A program made the translations under genes and the position numbers. A stretch of 64,000 nt of DNA from Tricharina praecox (taxonomy: Eukaryota), in the NCBI RefSeq assembly GCF_024521635.1, contig NW_026250404.1:1736001-1800000 (forward strand), in the 5' to 3' direction. The notes under the pieces were generated by a model. It did not search any database. It had not been told where the DNA came from and saw nothing but the letters and a program-made list of their open reading frames with translations. Positions 53,720 to 64,000 of the stretch are shown one piece after another. Each line of letters begins with the position of its first letter. Positions within the stretch are counted from its first letter, which is position 1.

Positions 53720-54784
53720 TCAGAATCTCTTCAAGCCCACTTTTGGAGCCGACTTCTTCGCCGCTGGTTTTGCGCTGGTCGTGATGGCTTTTTTGGTCAT
53801 GCCGAGCGCGGCGGGGGCGGAGGTGGAGGTGACTGGCCGAGATCTGGTCTTGACCGAAGAGGCCTTGCGTGTGAGGCCAGGGTTCGCGCCTTTCTGGACC
53901 TTGGGCGATTTTCTTCCGGACTCTATTGGTGCGTCATTGCTCGCGGCGCCCTTCTCGTTCTCGTCCGCGGGGACGGTGGTGGTAGGCTCCTCCTCTCGCG
54001 AACGTTTGGTACCAGGCGGCGAGATCGGGCGTGGCCGCGCCGTAACGACGTTTTCCTTTCCCGAGTCGCCGCCGTCTGAATCCGACTCGTGGCCGTCCGA
54101 TCGCTTGGGCGACACCGCGCGTCGGATCTTCCTGCGGACGGTAGTGGTTGTGGTGACTGTGGACTTCGAGGGCTTGCGCTTGTGCTTCGTCTGTTTGAGC
54201 GCGGTGTTGGAGCCACTCGAGCTGGCGACAAGCTTCTTCGGGGAAGACGGCAACGGCAGCGCGTCCCCATCGCTTCCGGCCCCGTCACGCAGCCGCGTCT
54301 CTTCGACATCTTTCTTGAGCTTTTCCGGAATCGCCGCGTGCACCTCCGTCATCAATCGCGCATGACGCGCGAATGCCTCATAGTCGTCCAGGAGCAGCTT
54401 GCCGGCGGCCTCATTGAGCGAACTGGTCGGGTTGGGAAACACCAACAGACACCGGATGGTGACAAGGACGTCGTGGAGAGTCAGCTTCGGGTTCCAGTCT
54501 CGCTTTAGGGTGTCGACGCAGACATCGCCGGTGCGGCCATCCACGTTGGGATGGAAGATCTTGGTTGTGAAGTTCGCCTTCGGTGGGTCCTGTGGATAGG
54601 TTGGAGGAATCCGCAGAGAGATGTGGAAGACACCAGACTCGAATGGGGTCCCGGTAGGTCCAACTAGATAGATGGACAATCCGGTGAGGTCGTCAGAGGA
54701 GTCGCCAGCGAAGAAGTAGTCCGAGGGCGGCGTGTTGCTGATCATGGCGTGATCCTGAGCCAGACGACGACGTTGTGAAGCCAT
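53720..54784 (-). CDS. UBE2S: Ubiquitin-conjugating enzyme E2, UBE2S-like, with long basic C-terminal tail
   Basis: GPTGTPFESGVF, YPQDPPK, KIFHPNVD...GDVCVDTLKRDWNP, IRCLLVFPNPTSSLNEAAGKLLLDDYEAFARHARLMTEVHA; tail ends GLKRF. Confidence 0.9.
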   Translation of the reverse strand: MASQRRRLAQDHAMISNTPPSDYFFAGDSSDDLTGLSIYLVGPTGTPFESGVFHISLRIPPTYPQDPPKANFTTKIFHPNVDGRTGDVCVDTLKRDWNPKLTLHDVLVTIRCLLVFPNPTSSLNEAAGKLLLDDYEAFARHARLMTEVHAAIPEKLKKDVEETRLRDGAGSDGDALPLPSSPKKLVASSSGSNTALKQTKHKRKPSKSTVTTTTTVRRKIRRAVSPKRSDGHESDSDGGDSGKENVVTARPRPISPPGTKRSREEEPTTTVPADENEKGAASNDAPIESGRKSPKVQKGANPGLTRKASSVKTRSRPVTSTSAPAALGMTKKAITTSAKPAAKKSAPKVGLKRF

Positions 54785-57222
54785 AGTGAGCGCGTAGTGG
54801 GTCGAAGAACCTCAGTAGAAGTGTAGAGGAGGCGGTGTGATGATTGGGAGGTATACGAGGGGCACTGATTGGGATAAAGGTCGTGGGGGTATTTGAAGGT
54901 AGGCTTTGTGGAGCACTACTAGTCGTGGTTATCGGAAAGCGTTCAATGTTTGTTTACTTTGGGCCGAGAAACGATCTAGCCGCATTCAGAATAGAAAGGC
55001 GCGTTCAGAGCCCTGCACGTGTTTCTTCTCTCGCCGCGTTGGGAGCGCGTCAAGCCATGCCCTAGTCTGGGTTGGGAAGAGGACTGCTGAGAATCTCGGG
55101 GATGAGGAAAACTGAGCATTTCAAAACTGATTTGATGTACCTATTGATTTTGAGGATGCGAATGGTAGCGAGAGCAAACCGTATGCAGTCTGTCTGTCTG
55201 CCTATCAGACCGTTCAGGATACTATTGAATATCGAAAATCCAGGGATGACTAATGCAGCATCGAAATTCGAGGGCGGAGAGCGGGCGGTGAACTGGGCGG
55301 AATGTACTTGTAGGGTGGGGTGGTGCCCAGCAGAACGGCATCAACGTGCATCACTGGCAGCTGCAGTCCCTGGCACTTAGTAATCACGAAACAGACAAAA
55401 TATTCCCCGGAATTCAACTCCAGGACCCCCGGGATCACTCGGACAGGTAGATGCCTGGTCCGATAGCAGCTTTGAAACAACATGAAGCACCGGTAGCCGC
55501 CGGGCAGTGACAACCTTCGACCACGGGAATGTCAAGTCGCCGCGGCTAATACACTCACCGCGGCTACCGTCTTCCGCCAGATCACAGACATATCTCCGCC
55601 AAACCTGGGGGCCAGCACGCTGAGTCTGAAAGGGACTCAAAGTAAGTTGAATCGTTCACGCCTATCGACGTATCTGATACCTGCGCCGCTCCATTCCGAT
55701 TCTCACTCACCCAAGGCAGTGCTCTGGGTATCCAAACATCATGGCCCTCTCGACTGGCTTCCACTCGCCAGACCTCCACTTTCTCCGTTCGCCAGGGCTC
55801 CGCCCGTTCGGCTAGATTCCAAGTCCAAGTCATGCCGTCTGCGGTATGGTTCCGGAGGTGAACCGTGCTTGTGAATGAGAAGAATGAAACTCGGCAGGTT
55901 CGTGGTTGTATTAAGCAATGGAAGACCTGATCTGCGGCTATGATGTGATGTCGTGGGGGGCACGTGCAAACGGAACTGCTCCCAAAGTGATCCGGGGTTA
56001 TCTACGCTCCGTGTCTGGACCCCGGAAGCCCCGAACACGAGCCATTCATTCGCCGAGTTGCAGCCCGATGCATCCGCCGAGCAGCCGCCGTCCCCGCTGT
56101 GCACTTATGCAGTCGACTCCCTGTCCGGACGCGGAATAGTGTGGTTACATGTTCGCTACCTCGATTCCAACACCGAGCCGCCTAACATGCAGATGCCAGG
56201 CATCGAGAGGAGGTGGCCGACCAATTGGGCAATGGCCAGTGCAGGAGGGGATCAGCCAAGATATGGATCGATGTGTTGTCAACAGCAAATTGCTCGCAGA
56301 GCCGTTTCTGTGAGACCTGTGTCAAAATTTGCAGACGGTGGGGGAACAGAAGGTGAAAGACGTGTCGAGCAAGGCGACAAGAGGAAGGCGTCTTGTATTT
56401 ATGGCTTTGGTCCAGCGTCTCAAAGGGCAGCTATTCGGATGGCGATGCTTCGCTCTGCTTTGGCGAGTGGACTTGTCTAGGACCGCTCTAGCCTCGATGG
56501 TGATCAAAGATGAGGAAGAGGCAGCCAACGACAGTCGAGATCGCATGCCACACCTCCTCCGCCTCCCACGCACGCATGTCCGCAGGCCTCCGTCCATCGT
56601 CACGTGCATGCATGTCATCTCTCTCTGCCATGTTGCGACGTGTTCCTCTGTTCTGGTGGTGGTGGTGGTGGGGAGGCAGTTGCAGCTGCAGCGGTGGTGG
56701 TGTGCGGAGTTCGGTTTCTGTGCTCGGATGAGGAATCATCCTTACCCAAAGCGGATGTGGCCCGAAGCAGAAGTGGTGCAGCCCGAACGAGTTAGGGACT
56801 AGCCGGACCGGCCAATTGGGCGGCCAGGGATGGCGCCCAAGTGTCGGGAGTCCTAGCAGGCAAGAACACAGCACAGGTAGGAGAGGCAGGGGGGGCAGGC
56901 TGGCAGACAGGGGGGGAAACCGGGGGAGGGCAGAATATCTGAAGAAGACCACCAGCACTCACATTAATTATCATCCTCGCAAACCCATCGCTCTGCCGCT
57001 TGCTTGTCGCTGTTGCTGTCGCTGTTGCTGTTGCTATTGCTGCCGTTGCCGCTGCCGCTGCTCTCCACACACACCGGCCAGGACGGAAAGAAGACCTTCG
57101 ACTTCGAACCCTCGAGCCTTCCCTTCTCTCTTTCCCTTCTTCCTCTTCTTCGTGGAATTCCTCACGATACGCCTACTTGCTCTCCCTTCCTTCGGAGTTC
57201 CCTTCTTCTTGTGTTCGCTTTG

Positions 57223-57571
57223 ATGCTTGATATAGCAAGCCCAGCCTGACACGGACGCAAACCAGACGAGCCTGTCGTACTGAACTGATCCTCGTTGCTG
57301 CTGAGCCCTGTACTCCTCCTGTGCTCCTTGCCCTCTCCGCCCTGCCTTCTCTTCTGTGTGAGAAGCCAAGCTCCTCGACGTCTTCTCCTCTGCCAATAGG
57401 TTGCCACCTTTGTGTTCGCGCTCTCTTCTCACTGGTGCAGAGCTGATTTTCGCTGTCAATCCCTTGTAGAGTGTAATAGGCCGTATATACTTGTTCTGCC
57501 TCCACACCCTCACCCCTCGAGCAAATATAAAGGGGGCTACCACATGGGAAATTGAGGAACCAATTTCCTGA
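57223..57571 (+). CDS. Candidate 37-aa leader ORF MLDI-SVIGRIYLFCLHTLTPRANIKGATTWEIEEPIS*, in frame with the downstream giant gene; exons 57223-57234, 57470-57571
   Basis: First ATG after a pyrimidine-rich leader; GCAAGC donor (57235), GCTGAT branch (57442), TAG acceptor (57469); ends TGA CTA. Confidence 0.5.
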
Positions 57572-60500
57572 CTACCACCGCAACCATCTCGACCGCTAAG
57601 CACGTTGCCTTCATCACTGAATAACTCGGTCGTGGTGTTGTCGCCGTCGTCGTCCTCGCCGTCGTCGTCCTCGCCCTCCTCCGAGTACCTCCCATCGAAC
57701 CCCTCCCCGCCGCCGCAGCTACCGTCTTCGCCACCCGCCCCGGAGCACGAATATCAGTGGCCGTCAGAGGAGCAGCTCCCTCATTCACCCCACCCCGAGC
57801 TCGCCCCAGCCATTGTAGGTGGGCTTTCACAGTCCTGGTCGTCACCGTCGTCGTCCTCGTCATCCACCACCGCTACTGTCTCGAAGGTAGCGCAGAGCAG
57901 TGAACAGCAGTCGGAGGAAGGCTCGCGGTATTTTACTCCCGCTGTAAGCCTCGAGAATTCGAGCAGTCCGCGAAATCAAGTGCGACCAAGAAGTGAGAGT
58001 CCTGCATCGCTACCGCGTGTCGTCGCTGCCGCCCTACTAGGTGTTGTTGAAACGAGTGCAAGTCGAACCAGGGATCTTCAGAGAGAGACCAGGGGCCAGG
58101 TGTTGGTTCAGCGTCGTTACACGGAAGATTGGGTTCTTCGTCGTGGTTACCAGCAACACCGCCGTGCTTCTTCTAGCTGGTACTCGGAGTCCTCGCAAGA
58201 TCCGGAAGAGGATACAGACAGAACCGAAGGCCACCGCCGGAACACCTCGAACGCGAAAACAATCACTCCAGCCGACTATCAGCTGCCGAGGGGTACGTTT
58301 CTGAACGTTCCGGGAACAGAGCTATCTTCGGATCGCGAATCTGCTGTCAGTGGCGCGACGGGCGTGACTGGGAGATACAGGACAGCTCCCCAATCTCTTG
58401 CCGAGTTTCCGATGGATCACATAATAGACCCCCCGGAGGTGCCCGCTCTGCCGAGTCGGTGGGCCGATCTGACACCATCCCCAATTGAAGACAAGGGGGT
58501 GAACGGGTTGAAGGGACTGCCTCCGCCGCTGCAGATGGAGTCAACACCCCAGGCTTCTCCGACAATCGGCAGCGTGAGTGCGGTCGCCAATTATCTGCTA
58601 TCGGCACCAAAATCAGGGCCAACTTCTCGAACGAGTACACCGAGCTCCCGAAAATCAATGAAATGGCGGGGCCGAAATGTCGTCATTCAGATACCGGCCG
58701 ATTCGATGTTCGGCTTACCCGGTGGGCGACCGGTCCCATTAAGCAGGGAGGAAGTTGAAAAGAAGATGAAGGGGTGGGTAGACAAAGGCTATGATATCAG
58801 CATAGGGGGCCAAGGTGCTTGCAAAGACGTTTTTCCAGAAGAGCGGAGAAGCAAGGTTGAAGCGAGCGAGGTGTTTATCAGCATTCCCGACCCAAGAGGT
58901 ATGTTTATCTTGACCAAACGTGGCACACGTGGATCACCGCTACCGTCCGAAAGCGCGCCTTGCTAATGGATGCGCAGAATGGGACGCATATGTGGACACG
59001 TTGCGAGAAGAAAAGCTGAGGGCGCTCGGAGTGATACCTGACGATGGTCCATTAACACACTCAGGGTCCGGAGGAGAAACGCCTTTGGTAATTGACGCTT
59101 TCATCCACCATATGAGTTGCTAGTCATGGTGCTAACATGCTCTTCAGTCTCTTATGCAGAGTCCCGCACAACATGCCATGAATATGTTCTCCCCGCCATC
59201 ACTGACCGCATCAGCAATGAGCAATCCTCATTCGATGCATCCGCATGGGCCTTTCAATCCATTTTCTCCCATATCGATCCCGGCGAACGGCACCCCCGTG
59301 CCATCACTGATGTCGCCTGGTGGTCAACCAGCTCATCTTGCGTTCCACCTGCCCCGCCAGTCAATATCGGCAACCCCGTCGAACCAAAACGATTGGGACC
59401 CGTACTCGGGGATGTATACCCCTCCAATCCAGCAGCATACTCCCCCGAATATGAACGGATCTGGCGGCTGGGCTCCTTTTACTATGCGCAACGGCTCTCC
59501 CGGAATGATGAATATGCCAATGCACGGCCATTCGGGCAGCCAGTTTAACCTCGGAGGATACCCTATGCCAATGGAGAGCCCAATGGGGGATCCTTATGTT
59601 CCCCACCACGGGCTCGTTGGCCAGGAGCGCTTCCATCACCAACAGATGCGTCGTGGTTCGCCATTGGCGCATGTTAGACACCCGGTCCAGCCAGAGCCAG
59701 CACCAGAAGCGCCATTGTACCCAGGACTCGCAATCATCGATGCTCCTGTACCTAAGCATCGCCATCAGCTCAGCGTCACACTTCAAAAAGAGTTCGAGAA
59801 CACCGAGGCTTACCAGCTAGAAGAGGCAAGGCGGGCAAAAGAAGGCATCAAAGAGCCCGAAGCCGATGGGTTTGCGACAAATCCCGTTTCACCAGTGCCA
59901 GTTCAATTTCCCCCACAACCGGACATGCCGAACGTCGAGATGGATGTGCACAATGGACCCGAGCTGGCTTCGAATCCTGATGACGATGTGATGTCTGACG
60001 TTGAGGCGGAGAAGCAGAATAACATCCACGAAGCTCATGTCCGCGGCGGCAGTGTCGAGTACCCGCAGGGCCCCTACAATGTCGATTTGGCTCCCCTGCA
60101 TCCGTCATATGTACCCCAGACACAGTTCCCCGTTCCACACAGCCGCGAGCAGTCGCTTTCTCAGATGCAGCACGAGCATGAGACTATAGATCCCATTCAG
60201 AACTCCGCAATGTCGATGATGATGATAGGCGAGGGCATGGGTGGTGGAAATCGCAACCCGGTGGCAGCCATTCACGACGAACTCCTCAGCGAGGATGGCC
60301 GGACCAACATCTCGGATATCGTCACCAACCCTAGCGAGCCCTCAAGTCCTGAGCGTAGGTTCTCGAACACAGCCAGCCACGCACACCATATGTCAAACAC
60401 CAGTGCTACGTGGACTGCAGACCATACCAAGAATGCCTTGTCGAATTCGTCGGCCACGAAGCCAAAATTCAACGTCAACGCAGCCGAGTTCAAATTTGAG

Positions 60501-63500
60501 CCTTCCTTCAATTTTGTTCCCAAGGGCAATGCATTCACCCCTACAAGTCAGATGGCCCCGGTCACCTCTCCAGAGAGTCATACCAGGGATCACAGCTCTG
60601 GCTCAACCGGTGGTTTCGGTGGTTTCGGCGCCGGATCAAACGCCAGTACCTTCCGTCCGAGCTTGGGTAACACTAGTGCCTACGCCTCGATCTTCGAGAA
60701 AGGCGCCGCTGCATTCAGCCCCAATGCTCCGGAGTTCACACCGTCTTTCGCACAGGCCACGCCGCCGGCACTGCCGCCGGCGTCGCCGCCTCACCAAGCT
60801 GCTGAACCTATATTCACCGAAGTCGTTCGACAGCCTCCTATGAAGAAGGCCATTCCCATTGTCCGACCACCCAGTCGCGAGTCGGAGGCTGGAGATGATA
60901 GGAGGGATAGTATATCAACAGAGAGCCGCAAGAGGGTCAAGCATGAGCCTACCAAGAGTATTGTTAATGAAACCGAGGACTCTTTCGCCGAGTCTTTGTC
61001 GCCGCTATCACAGAATGATATGGACAACATGGTCGAACTTGCAGAGCTGGAAGACCTAGAGGAACCTTCCGACCATGACAGCGAGAGCGAAAATGAAGAT
61101 GACCTGGACGACGAGGATGATGAAGGTGAACAGCTAATGAAGGCACCCCTGGAGGAAGTTTTGGGATCCTTCACGCCCTTCGAGTTCCGGAGCACGAATG
61201 ATGCCGAATCGTTTGCCAACGCTACGCCTATGAATGATTATGAGCGCCCCGTCCCGAGGTCAAATGGCCCCGAGCGTGAGATTCTTTCGCCTGATGAGGC
61301 GTACATCGCTATCACCGCTCAGACTCCATCGCCATCGCCTTCACCGCAGCCTTTCAAGTTCTCCGCTAGCCCATCACTCAAACCGACTGGCCAAGATTTC
61401 AACTTCGAGTTCCCTTCGGCAGCCACACCCCCCAAGAAGTCGTATGGTATCGTCGAGTCCCGATATGCGCATACGCCGTCGCCTCCTCCTTCCGAGCCAG
61501 CGCCCTCTCCACCTATGCCCAACAGTCCGTTCTTGCCGCCCAGACCCGCAACACCATATACTGGAGATGTTGATCCGGAGAAAACGGAAGTCGACAGACC
61601 AATGCCAACTGACGCAGAGTTGAACGAGGTCATCCAATACATGGACGAGACTAATGTCGTCTACCTCGAGCAACCCTCCGAACAATCGGAAGACGATGAG
61701 GATGCAGAGGGTGAGGAAGTTAGCGACGAGGATGCTAGTCACCAAGGCACCATCTCCTGGCAACGAAATGCCAACACCAGCAGGCCTTTCATGCCAATGT
61801 CCGATGAGCAGACCCCGATAAAGCAGAGTAAACGCCTTCACAGTGCTGGACCTAGTCCGAGTCCGCGTCGTGCCGACATTACGTACCGTCACCGTGCCTC
61901 CTCATTCTCCCCCGACGAGCCAATTCCGGCTCACGCACTCGGTGGCAATCCCTCTGCCCCTCCCCAAGAAATCAGAGCCGCAGACAGTGATTGGGATGAT
62001 ATGCTCTCGGATGAACACGGTGGAAAGCTGCGCCCGCAAAGCCGTTTGTTCTTTGACGCACACGTCGAGGAACTCGTGGGTGGACTGTTCCAGCGCAGAC
62101 TCGACCCAGTCATCAGTGCTCTTGCGACTATCAATGATACACTGACCGCAATGTCCGCCTTCAGCTCGACTAGGAGTCTCGGCGAGTACGCTACTAGTGA
62201 CGCCGACGACGAGGAAGAAGACGATACCGAGGATCTCGTGCCGCATAAAACTCCGCGGGATAGAAAACTTCAGAAGATCAAGGCGGCGTTGTCCGAGGTG
62301 TTGTTGGCTCAGCGGAGTGGAGGTGCAATCTCCGAGCAGAATCTTGAGGCGATCAAGGATGCGGTTGTTAATAGCAGCATTCAAAGCCATGACTTTGCTG
62401 AGGTCAAGTCTGCCATTGCCGACATGCTTGAAAAGGCTGCCGGCCACGAGGACTTGTCCGAGGTGAAGACTACCCTGGGGGATATTGCCGCAAGGGTTGC
62501 ACAAAGCGCCGAATTGGTCGACCTTAAAGCCACCGTTTCCGCGGCTGCTCGGGAAACCGCTCAGGCTTGCGCCACGGCCCTGCAGGGTACCGCTAAATCC
62601 CAGGATATGGCTGCTGTCAGGGAGAGTGTGGTGACGCTGAGAGATACTGTTCGCGATGCCGTTGATGAAATCGTGACCAATGTTAGCGACAGGGTTGACG
62701 ATACGAAGTTCGCGCTTCAGGACGTCCTGATGCGAGCCGCTCAACGCAGCGATATTGCAGAAGTCAAGGCCGCCATCGCCAACTCGATGAACAACGCTGC
62801 TCGGAAGGAAGACCTTATTCCTCTACACAACGTTCTTGCCGAAACATTCTCGAAATCTGCAAAGACGGATGAACTCGTCGAGTTGAACCGTATCTTGGTC
62901 GAGATCATGAACACTGTGACAAGCAATGACATTGGGCCGACACATCTCGAGATTCTTCGCCTCAAGCAGGAGAACGATCAGTTTGGCCCTCTGCTGCATG
63001 AGGTGCTTCGGCTCACTCAGGACTTCTCGGCAAACATGGAGTTCCACCAGGAGGCCCAGCAGGAAACCGCCAAGGAGGGTCAAGCCACGCTCTCTACCCG
63101 TATCAGCGAGGTCTACTCTGCCGTACGGGAGATGACAACGTTCGTTCAATCCAGTGCTTCCAAGGGTGACATGCGCCGCAACCTTGCGGAGCAAGGACAG
63201 AAGGAGGATGCCGCAATAATTAAGATGTCAATCGCAGAGACCAAACTGCACATCCAGGAGCTCGCAAGGGTGCAGCCCACTCTCGAGGATTTCCACTCGG
63301 TTGTTGATAAGGTCACCACCAATCAACCAAAGATTGACGAATTCAAGTCAGCAATGGCGGAAGCCGTTGCTGCTACAGTCCCGGGCTTGGACGATATCAA
63401 GAAAAGTCTTCGAGACATCATCAAAGAAGACCCTACTGGAGTTGCAGAATTTAAGAGGGCGGCCGAGGAGGACCGGCAGCGCAATGTGGAGGAGTTCCGG

Positions 63501-64000
63501 ACGGTGGTCAACCAGGCTTCTTTGAACAACCCTTGGTCTCAACCATCTCTGGATGATTTCCGGGCCCTCATGGAAGATGTCATTTCCAAGCAGCAGATGT
63601 TTATTCCCCTCAACTTTGACAGCCCCGAGGACAGCGATTCCAAGGAGAATTTGAAGTTGAAGATTGAGGCCTTGGAGAGGGATGTTGCGCTCTTCCAGAA
63701 GCGTGGTGACGAGGAGGTGGAGAGGAAGCGACAGTGGCAGGAGAAGACGATTGAGCTGGAGACGAAACTCAAGCTTGCCGAGGAAGAGGCAGCCAAGCAC
63801 CGTGAGGTGGCCGAAGAGAAGGACCGTCGTCTGAAAGCCTCCGACGAGAAACGACACCAGACGCTCACATCGGCCCAGATGCGGAGTGCACTGCTCGAGG
63901 GTGCACACTCATCCCTTCAAAAGTCCAACGGTGAGCTCGCGGCAAAGAATGCTGAGCTCGAGGGAGCTATGCGGGAAGCACAGACGAGTGAGGAGAAGCA
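57572..64000 (+). CDS. Very large, 3'-truncated protein: disordered N-half with PAM2-like motifs and a C-terminal coiled coil (resembles fungal proteins annotated 'myosin heavy chain-like'); first in-frame ATG at 58412; introns 58899-58977 and 59088-59147
   Basis: Open frame 57572-58898; spliced exon EWDAYVDTLREEKLRALGV; final exon in one frame from 59148 to the window end (omitted by the ORF track because it has no stop); heptad-rich end LKLKIEALERDVAL...KNAELEGAMREAQ. Confidence 0.9.

Follow-up and report, generated by a model that had tools for sequence, protein, structure and literature searches.

A gene on the plus strand of the 64,000-nucleotide (nt) Tricharina praecox stretch analyzed here (the window) was identified, through its Tuber melanosporum homologue, as the orthologue of PxdA, and sequence comparisons identify an 865-nt stretch without ATG near its 5' end as the conserved N terminus of PxdA and not as a leader. 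The gene would yield two proteins, a long form of ~2,690 amino acids (aa) started at a near-cognate codon at 57602-57638 and a 2,421-aa form started at the AUG at 58412; we assign this reading a probability of about 0.72.

No plus-strand ATG occurs between the one at 57544, which opens a short upstream open reading frame (uORF; MGN*) ending at 57555, and the one at 58412, as had been claimed in an earlier note on this DNA. The resulting ATG spacing of 868 nt exceeds every other one on the two strands of the window, where the runners-up measure 671 nt (plus strand) and 557 nt (minus strand). The main frame, described in the same note as stop-free with protein-like blocks, is open for 280 codons from 57572, after a TGA at 57569-57571, up to 58412, and the quoted peptides were found in it; only 1 of 20,000 base shuffles stayed open as long. 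The expectation of about ten ATGs held under base composition (9.8) and not under the other null models. Dinucleotide shuffles (n = 5,000) gave a mean of 5.5 ATGs in the gap, with none in 0.06% of cases, codon-order shuffles gave 4.0 expected out-of-frame ATGs (none in 0.9%), and synonymous recoding with the codon usage of the gene itself gave 1.9 (none in 7.7%). For its part, the Met frequency of the gene predicts 7.5 in-frame Met over 270 codons, with a probability of 5e-4 of finding none. The stretch was chosen as the longest gap, which introduces a selection effect into its statistics. The absence of in-frame Met is the stronger signal and is solid, whereas the absence of out-of-frame ATGs is only modestly unusual.

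Coding constraint on the ATG-free stretch

A metagenome scan yielded a single related DNA locus out of 327 candidates (L004), which is 87% identical in the stretch and likewise lacks ATG over 832 nt. When the two sequences were compared between 57602 and 58411 (hereafter the extension), the ratio of nonsynonymous to synonymous substitution rates (dN/dS) was 0.32 in the main frame (p = 1e-7), compared to 1.41 and 0.93 in the other two frames. In the last two thirds (57881-58411) it was 0.19 (p = 1.5e-9), and the AUG-started exons gave 0.23 and 0.22. All four insertions or deletions (indels) in the extension were multiples of 3, versus 2 of 11 in the untranslated region (UTR) at 57201-57511 (p = 0.011), a count from which two large gaps further upstream were excluded. 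At the protein level, KAF8252595.1 of Wilcoxina mikolae matched the extension with 60% identity over 230 aa (E = 1e-60); it aligns in frame starting at the S-T-L codons at 57599-57607 and has no Met between residues 2 and 374. As judged from these comparisons, the stretch is protein-coding and under purifying selection in the main frame only. Searches of the extension plus exon 2 against Pfam matched no family, and the ESM Atlas gave no match of at least 0.9 for the N terminus.

An alternative view takes the stretch for an untranslated leader, or for the relic of a coding region, in which the missing ATGs merely keep it scannable; the stretch is left out of the gene model of this genome and of most models from Pezizales. 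However, the dN/dS of 57881-58411, the frame-keeping indels and the motifs common to 80 protein clusters (see below) make this the least probable of the explanations considered here.

Exclusion of Met across relatives

A profile built from 10 extensions matched 80 protein clusters at 50% identity, with named members from Sarea, Thermomyces, Penicillium, Phyllosticta, Golovinomyces and Onygenales. Among these, 57 carry the TEDW motif, 40 carry both delimiting motifs and 27 also have the control region; a PSSPP motif lies near the N terminus in 18 of the 80 matches. The 40 proteins hold 5 Met in 6,814 residues of extension, and 35 of them hold none. In the paired comparison of the 27 proteins, 5 Met were counted in the extension against 140 in the control in 4,647 residues (Wilcoxon p = 5e-6). 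The first Met lies 85 to 130 residues past the TEDW motif in 47 of 52 proteins (p = 3e-9 against a geometric null). A residue count in 19 proteins placed Met at 0.02 of the control, with every other residue at 0.48 or more; the motif pattern used there also matched YTAAW, and the Met counts of the 40- and 27-protein set replace it.

The frequency of Met in orthologous regions, proposed in the earlier note as a test, is thus far from normal. The same note held that selection keeps the region both coding and scannable. The first part stands: the region belongs to the mature mRNA and stays Met-free in many relatives, which keep a Met at a constant distance after it. The lack of out-of-frame ATGs, as stated above, is only modestly unusual.

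In the eukaryotic models from Thermomyces, Phyllosticta and Penicillium, Met opens the long form and is next found at 299, 272 and 285, respectively. Going by these gene models, the upstream start may be an AUG in some lineages; the T. praecox locus has none. Judging from P0068 and P0104, the initial M of metagenomic models may also represent GTG or TTG. Among the models of the family (P0009, P0165 and P0191 being examples), several run into a glucanase gene lying upstream, and those of Coccidioides have their starts at various places. Such fused or scattered starts are typical of gene finders seeking a missing AUG.

Identity of the gene

The genome's own model showed 36% identity over 2,355 columns (E = 0, 998 bits) with T. 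melanosporum XP_002839790.1, which is listed as a PxdA homologue with Aspergillus nidulans AN1156 as its reciprocal match (PMC10295486, Table S1). AN1156, the A. nidulans PxdA, was itself not returned by any homologue search, and the link to its sequence consists of motifs compared by eye. Its N terminus, as printed in the same table, contains the motifs YYTTAWGSPY, FTQDW and NWLSD, which by eye are the same as here, and has Met at residue 1 and next at ~318. The 2,421 aa encoded from AUG 58412 fall within the PxdA size (~2,000 to 2,500 aa, with a disordered N-terminal part and a putative C-terminal coiled coil), and the genome's own model (P0132) carries the family marker PF26916 (DUF8275). 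A conserved block lies 224 to 239 residues from the C terminus in six of the eight proteins examined; R2044 of the CC3 patch was not mappable onto it. Among named organisms, those with the closest relatives of the protein belong to Pyronemataceae (Wilcoxina, Trichophaea and Sphaerosporella). The genome that contains the window is 38 Mb in size.

Two PAM2-like motifs were found at 60468-60503 and 60714-60743, and at least one match to the PAM2-like pattern occurs in 83 of 93 long proteins; the Pfam PAM2 scores are below the cut-off in two relatives. PAM2L motifs are mentioned for the N-terminal region of PxdA in a 2026 preprint (10.64898/2026.04.14.718127). Shorter PxdA models are listed for Fusarium graminearum and A. 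fumigatus (2,081 aa each) and for Neurospora crassa, whose homologue NCU09104 is annotated with 2,032 aa (PMC10295486, Table S1).

Structure of the mRNA

Transcript evidence came from spliced contigs of two studies (X1 and X2), taken as RNA on the strength of their spliced joints; such contigs drop rare isoforms and variants and cannot show start sites. A third run (X5) was uninformative. Contigs of X1 start at 57029 and those of X2 at 57010, and they run past 64000 with three GT..AG introns. The features of the locus, all on the plus strand, are as follows.

57010 to 57399, plus strand: exon 1, non-coding leader, from the X1 and X2 contig starts; the 5' end is at or before 57010.
57223 to 57249, plus strand: uORF of 8 codons with T at -3; its ATG is missing in L004 and is not conserved.
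57400 to 57469, plus strand: 5' UTR intron of 70 nt, GT..AG; joint in one contig each of X1 and X2.
57544 to 57555, plus strand: uORF MGN*, not in frame with the main open reading frame (ORF); its AUG has C at -3 and G at +4, and it lies at the end of 31 nt that are unchanged in L004.
57569 to 57571, plus strand: last in-frame stop before the extension; L004 has an additional in-frame TAA matching 57581-57583.
57602 to 57640, plus strand: cluster of candidate near-cognate starts, six in-frame codons, four of them kept in L004.
57602 to 58411, plus strand: Met-free N-terminal extension of ~270 codons, from dN/dS, the W. mikolae match and the 80 clusters.
57722 (PSSPP), 57929 (YFTP), 58118 (YTEDW), 58172 (SSWYS) and 58232 (HRRN), plus strand: conserved motifs of the extension.
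58412 to 58898, plus strand: remainder of exon 2, opening with the first in-frame AUG (C at -3, G at +4), where the predicted 2,421-aa form starts.
58899 to 58977, plus strand: intron 2, 79 nt, GT..AG (X1 and X2 contigs).
58978 to 59087, plus strand: exon 3 (X1 and X2 contigs).
59088 to 59147, plus strand: intron 3, 60 nt, GT..AG (X1 and X2 contigs).
59148 to 64000, plus strand: exon 4, with a disordered region, the two PAM2-like motifs and then a putative coiled-coil region; the ORF would end at 65816, past the window.

The leader of the mRNA is ~520 nt long, has one intron and carries two short uORFs whose context is weak. Exon 2 of the mature mRNA contains the whole ATG-free stretch, preceded there by the in-frame TGA, so that the mRNA offers no AUG in the frame of the stretch. 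After splicing, the ORF comprises 2,421 aa from AUG 58412 or 2,691 aa from ACG 57602, with its stop beyond the window. The models of Trichophaea hybrida and Sphaerosporella brunnea begin at the Met matching AUG 58412, and the genome's own model (2,303 aa) starts at Met 58766, 118 codons after that AUG and ~390 after the predicted long start.

An upstream AUG supplied by splicing was considered and rejected: no such joint was present in the contigs, and the ORF of ATG 57223 stops before the donor. The weak context ascribed to this ATG in the earlier note was borne out by the T at -3, but the ATG heads only the 8-codon uORF that is missing in L004.

Two transcripts, instead of leaky scanning, could also give two forms if transcription began in addition at a second promoter (with TATAAA at 57526-57531, or within the extension) or if an AUG came from a spliced exon that the contigs missed. 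The TATAAA lies inside the 31-nt block identical in L004, rare isoforms and start sites would escape the contigs, and the Thermomyces, Phyllosticta and Penicillium models do open the long form with Met. Against this, the contigs of both studies showed the same three introns and no other joint, exon 1 has only the AUG whose ORF terminates ahead of the donor and which L004 lacks, and a start site behind the TATA box would still require a non-AUG start for the long form. We consider this explanation quite improbable.

X2 differs from the genome at two positions, 59587 (G>T) and 62756 (T>C), and probably comes from another strain. Upstream of the gene, a divergent minus-strand ORF at 53720-54811 (side region 53720-56353) resembles, by eye, a ubiquitin-conjugating enzyme; an X1 contig spans 55000-56353 unbroken, which may mean a long leader.

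Candidate starts of the long form and the uORF at 57544

Between the L004 stop (57581-57583) and the PSSPP motif at 57722, the in-frame near-cognate codons are ACG 57602, TTG 57605, CTG 57617, GTG 57632, GTG 57635 and TTG 57638, of which 57602, 57605, 57632 and 57635 are kept in L004. After this cluster, the next in-frame near-cognate codon does not occur before 57812. A at -3 and G at +4 are the key context positions (PMC5487733); ACG 57602 and TTG 57605 both have A at -3 and neither has G at +4, the ACG being followed by T. The long form very likely initiates at a near-cognate codon. ACG 57602 is the leading candidate, at somewhat less than even odds; TTG 57605 and the GTG pair 57632/57635 are tentative choices, equally placed well behind it, and several codons may be used. 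The earlier note had offered ACG 57602 or TTG 57605 as merely another way to the long form. Both candidates are retained, and non-AUG initiation is more than an alternative: it is the only simple route, because the in-frame stop is in the same exon and ATG 57223 is neither in frame nor conserved.

In L004, the uORF from the same AUG as that at 57544 has 26 codons (L004 2288-2368) and extends to a stop matching 57622-57624, whereas the window uORF ends at codon 4, with TGA in place of the CGA of L004. Across 57544-57624, the substitutions relative to L004 agree better with the frame of the uORF than with the main one, 8 being synonymous and 5 other changes (dN/dS 0.15, p = 0.002 before three-frame correction). 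Possible sources of this signal are a peptide uORF that was truncated recently, a route by +1 frameshifting, or chance in an RNA under constraint.

The frameshift route would produce the long form from AUG 57544 if, as in antizyme, ribosomes shifted into the +1 frame at the stop of the uORF (GAA TAA C at 57619-57625; GAG TAG C in L004). The uORF frame looks coding up to that stop, the main frame is +1 relative to it, and frameshifting from a uORF AUG was left open for cpc-1 (PMC5487733). However, codon 4 of the window uORF is TGA, with no other base in the RNA contigs, so that two recoding events would be needed, and the back-read W. mikolae protein suggests that the AUG is missing there and that the stretch holds two 1-nt indels. 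We regard this route as very improbable. A-to-I editing of the uORF TGA was rejected as well, as no variant was seen in the RNA contigs, although these drop rare variants.

The 31-nt identical block (57522-57552) holds both the TATAAA and the uORF AUG and is possibly a second promoter or a scanning element. Directly behind that AUG, a 9-pair hairpin (57546-57570, -10.1 kcal/mol) can form, and the change that creates the TGA closes a mismatch found in L004; the two-sequence consensus fold, for its part, favors other pairs. No conserved RNA structure was detected in that two-sequence fold (0 of 38 pairs with changes on both sides), the stems behind the ACG and TTG are weak (-9.5 to -11.7 kcal/mol per 50 nt), and Rfam gave no match in 56900-58500.

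Two starts or one

In the proposed mechanism, scanning ribosomes would pass, or re-initiate after, the two weak-context uORFs of the leader. Some would start at the near-cognate cluster, preferably at ACG 57602, and make the long PxdA. The remaining ribosomes would scan 770 to 810 nt of AUG-free coding sequence and start at 58412, yielding a form that lacks the four conserved motifs of the N terminus. Across Pezizomycotina, this arrangement of two starts would be maintained by selection that disfavors Met within the extension and favors one just behind it. That ribosomes use AUG 58412, through leaky scanning or re-initiation, is likely, if a little less so than the near-cognate start itself.

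Several observations weigh against this reading. The Pro/Ser-rich first part of the extension (57602-57880, 93 codons) showed no significant constraint (dN/dS 0.75, p = 0.44), and the substitutions in 57544-57624 fit the uORF frame better, as described above. With a single DNA relative, there is little power to judge whether any given start codon is conserved. The Met counts err on the low side, as models starting inside the extension drop out; when every first residue was scored as an internal Met, the frequency was 0.50% in the extension versus 1.8% in the tails. Some relatives do have Met inside the extension (5 of 40, and also Coccidioides models). In A. nidulans, a single PxdA band of ~250 kDa was reported, which fits the larger of two predicted ORFs, and an S201stop allele, inside the extension, causes loss of function (10.1101/034231, PMC8101442, PMC10295486, 10.64898/2026.04.14.718127). 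According to the same sources, deletions of residues 1-1465 or 1-816 leave peroxisome movement intact, and the N-terminal region is described as uncharacterised and dispensable for that movement. That S201stop is defective although these deletions work implies that no useful amount of a short form is made from Met ~318 in the mutant, unless the mRNA decays. As far as they are available, the A. nidulans data indicate that the extension is translated and that most of the product in that species is the long form.

These results would suit a gene in which only the long, non-AUG form matters, AUG 58412 being mostly an internal Met and Met being scarce since an AUG behind a weak start would yield a harmful truncated PxdA. 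The C at -3 of AUG 58412, in both the window and L004, is in agreement with this explanation. It leaves unexplained, however, why 47 of 52 relatives have a Met 85 to 130 residues past TEDW. Moreover, near-cognate starts are inefficient in N. crassa, and most ribosomes should then reach 58412. A long form alone is unlikely, if the likeliest of the alternatives, and comparative evidence for a second, shorter form in T. praecox is good, though not direct.

Distinct functions for the two forms are doubtful. More speculative still is the proposal that two PxdA forms exist across Pezizomycotina in a ratio set by start-codon stringency, and that the four aromatic motifs of the long form bind a partner that the short form cannot, so that start choice would decide the endosome cargo (mRNPs, peroxisomes, DipA phosphatase or other). 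No phosphosites of AN1156 were obtained for the extension, as AN1156 was not found in the available part of the supplement of PMC8399174. A literature search on PxdA isoforms, non-AUG start, start codon and uORF, with most subscription papers outside its reach, found no paper on two PxdA forms.

Significance and comparison with known systems

PxdA is a central linker for organelle and messenger ribonucleoprotein (mRNP) hitchhiking in filamentous ascomycetes. Its first 270 to 320 residues combine conserved motifs with an absence of Met, followed by a positionally conserved Met, and this arrangement predicts two forms. The missing AUG would explain the scattered starts and neighbor-gene fusions among the models of the family, and the predicted long start corrects the genome's own model by ~390 residues at the N terminus. 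Wei et al. 2013 reportedly listed NCU09104 with a predicted conserved extension started at a near-cognate codon; the gene id was not found in the searchable full texts. If the listing is correct, a prediction of the non-AUG start in the PxdA family is already in print, though PxdA is not named in it.

Upa2 of Ustilago maydis is a large endosomal protein described for Basidiomycota, with PAM2 motifs and a C-terminal coiled coil, and it requires a C-terminal GWW (10.1101/455378, 10.1101/467787). Compared by description, it resembles the window protein in size, PAM2-type motifs and coiled coil. Orthology was rejected, since GWW is absent from the window protein and the link to PxdA was found instead; of 93 long proteins, 2 have a GWW no more than 200 residues from the C terminus. 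In an antizyme-type +1 frameshift, ORF1 is open to the shift site; this is the case only in L004, the window being blocked by the TGA at codon 4.

A. nidulans PxdA is the linker for the hitchhiking of peroxisomes, Woronin bodies and SsdA mRNPs on early endosomes and is required for SsdA-mRNP movement, according to the available parts of the PxdA papers cited above. It shares with the window protein a long disordered N-terminal part, tandem coiled coils and a short tail, the orthology being drawn via T. melanosporum. It differs in that AN1156 is annotated with Met at the upstream start, whereas here the first 270 codons lack AUG. Neither two translational forms nor a non-AUG start is discussed in those parts of the papers.

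The closest precedent for the proposed initiation is cpc-1 of N. crassa and Pezizomycotina, which has a conserved N-terminal extension started from near-cognate codons and two uORFs (PMC5487733). Non-AUG initiation is thus already established in these fungi, which limits the surprise. Both genes have a long open frame before the first AUG, several near-cognate codons that include an ACG with A at -3, leader uORFs, and automatic annotations that place the start differently. The near-cognate codons of cpc-1 precede uORF2, carry G at +4 and show conservation in up to 98 of 100 species, and their initiation has been demonstrated by experiment (PMC5487733). Here, they lie behind the uORF in the window, or under it in L004, ACG 57602 has T at +4, and two DNA sequences were compared. 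As in cpc-1, the T. praecox gene presents an AUG-free open frame before the first AUG of the mature mRNA, with purifying selection at the protein level.

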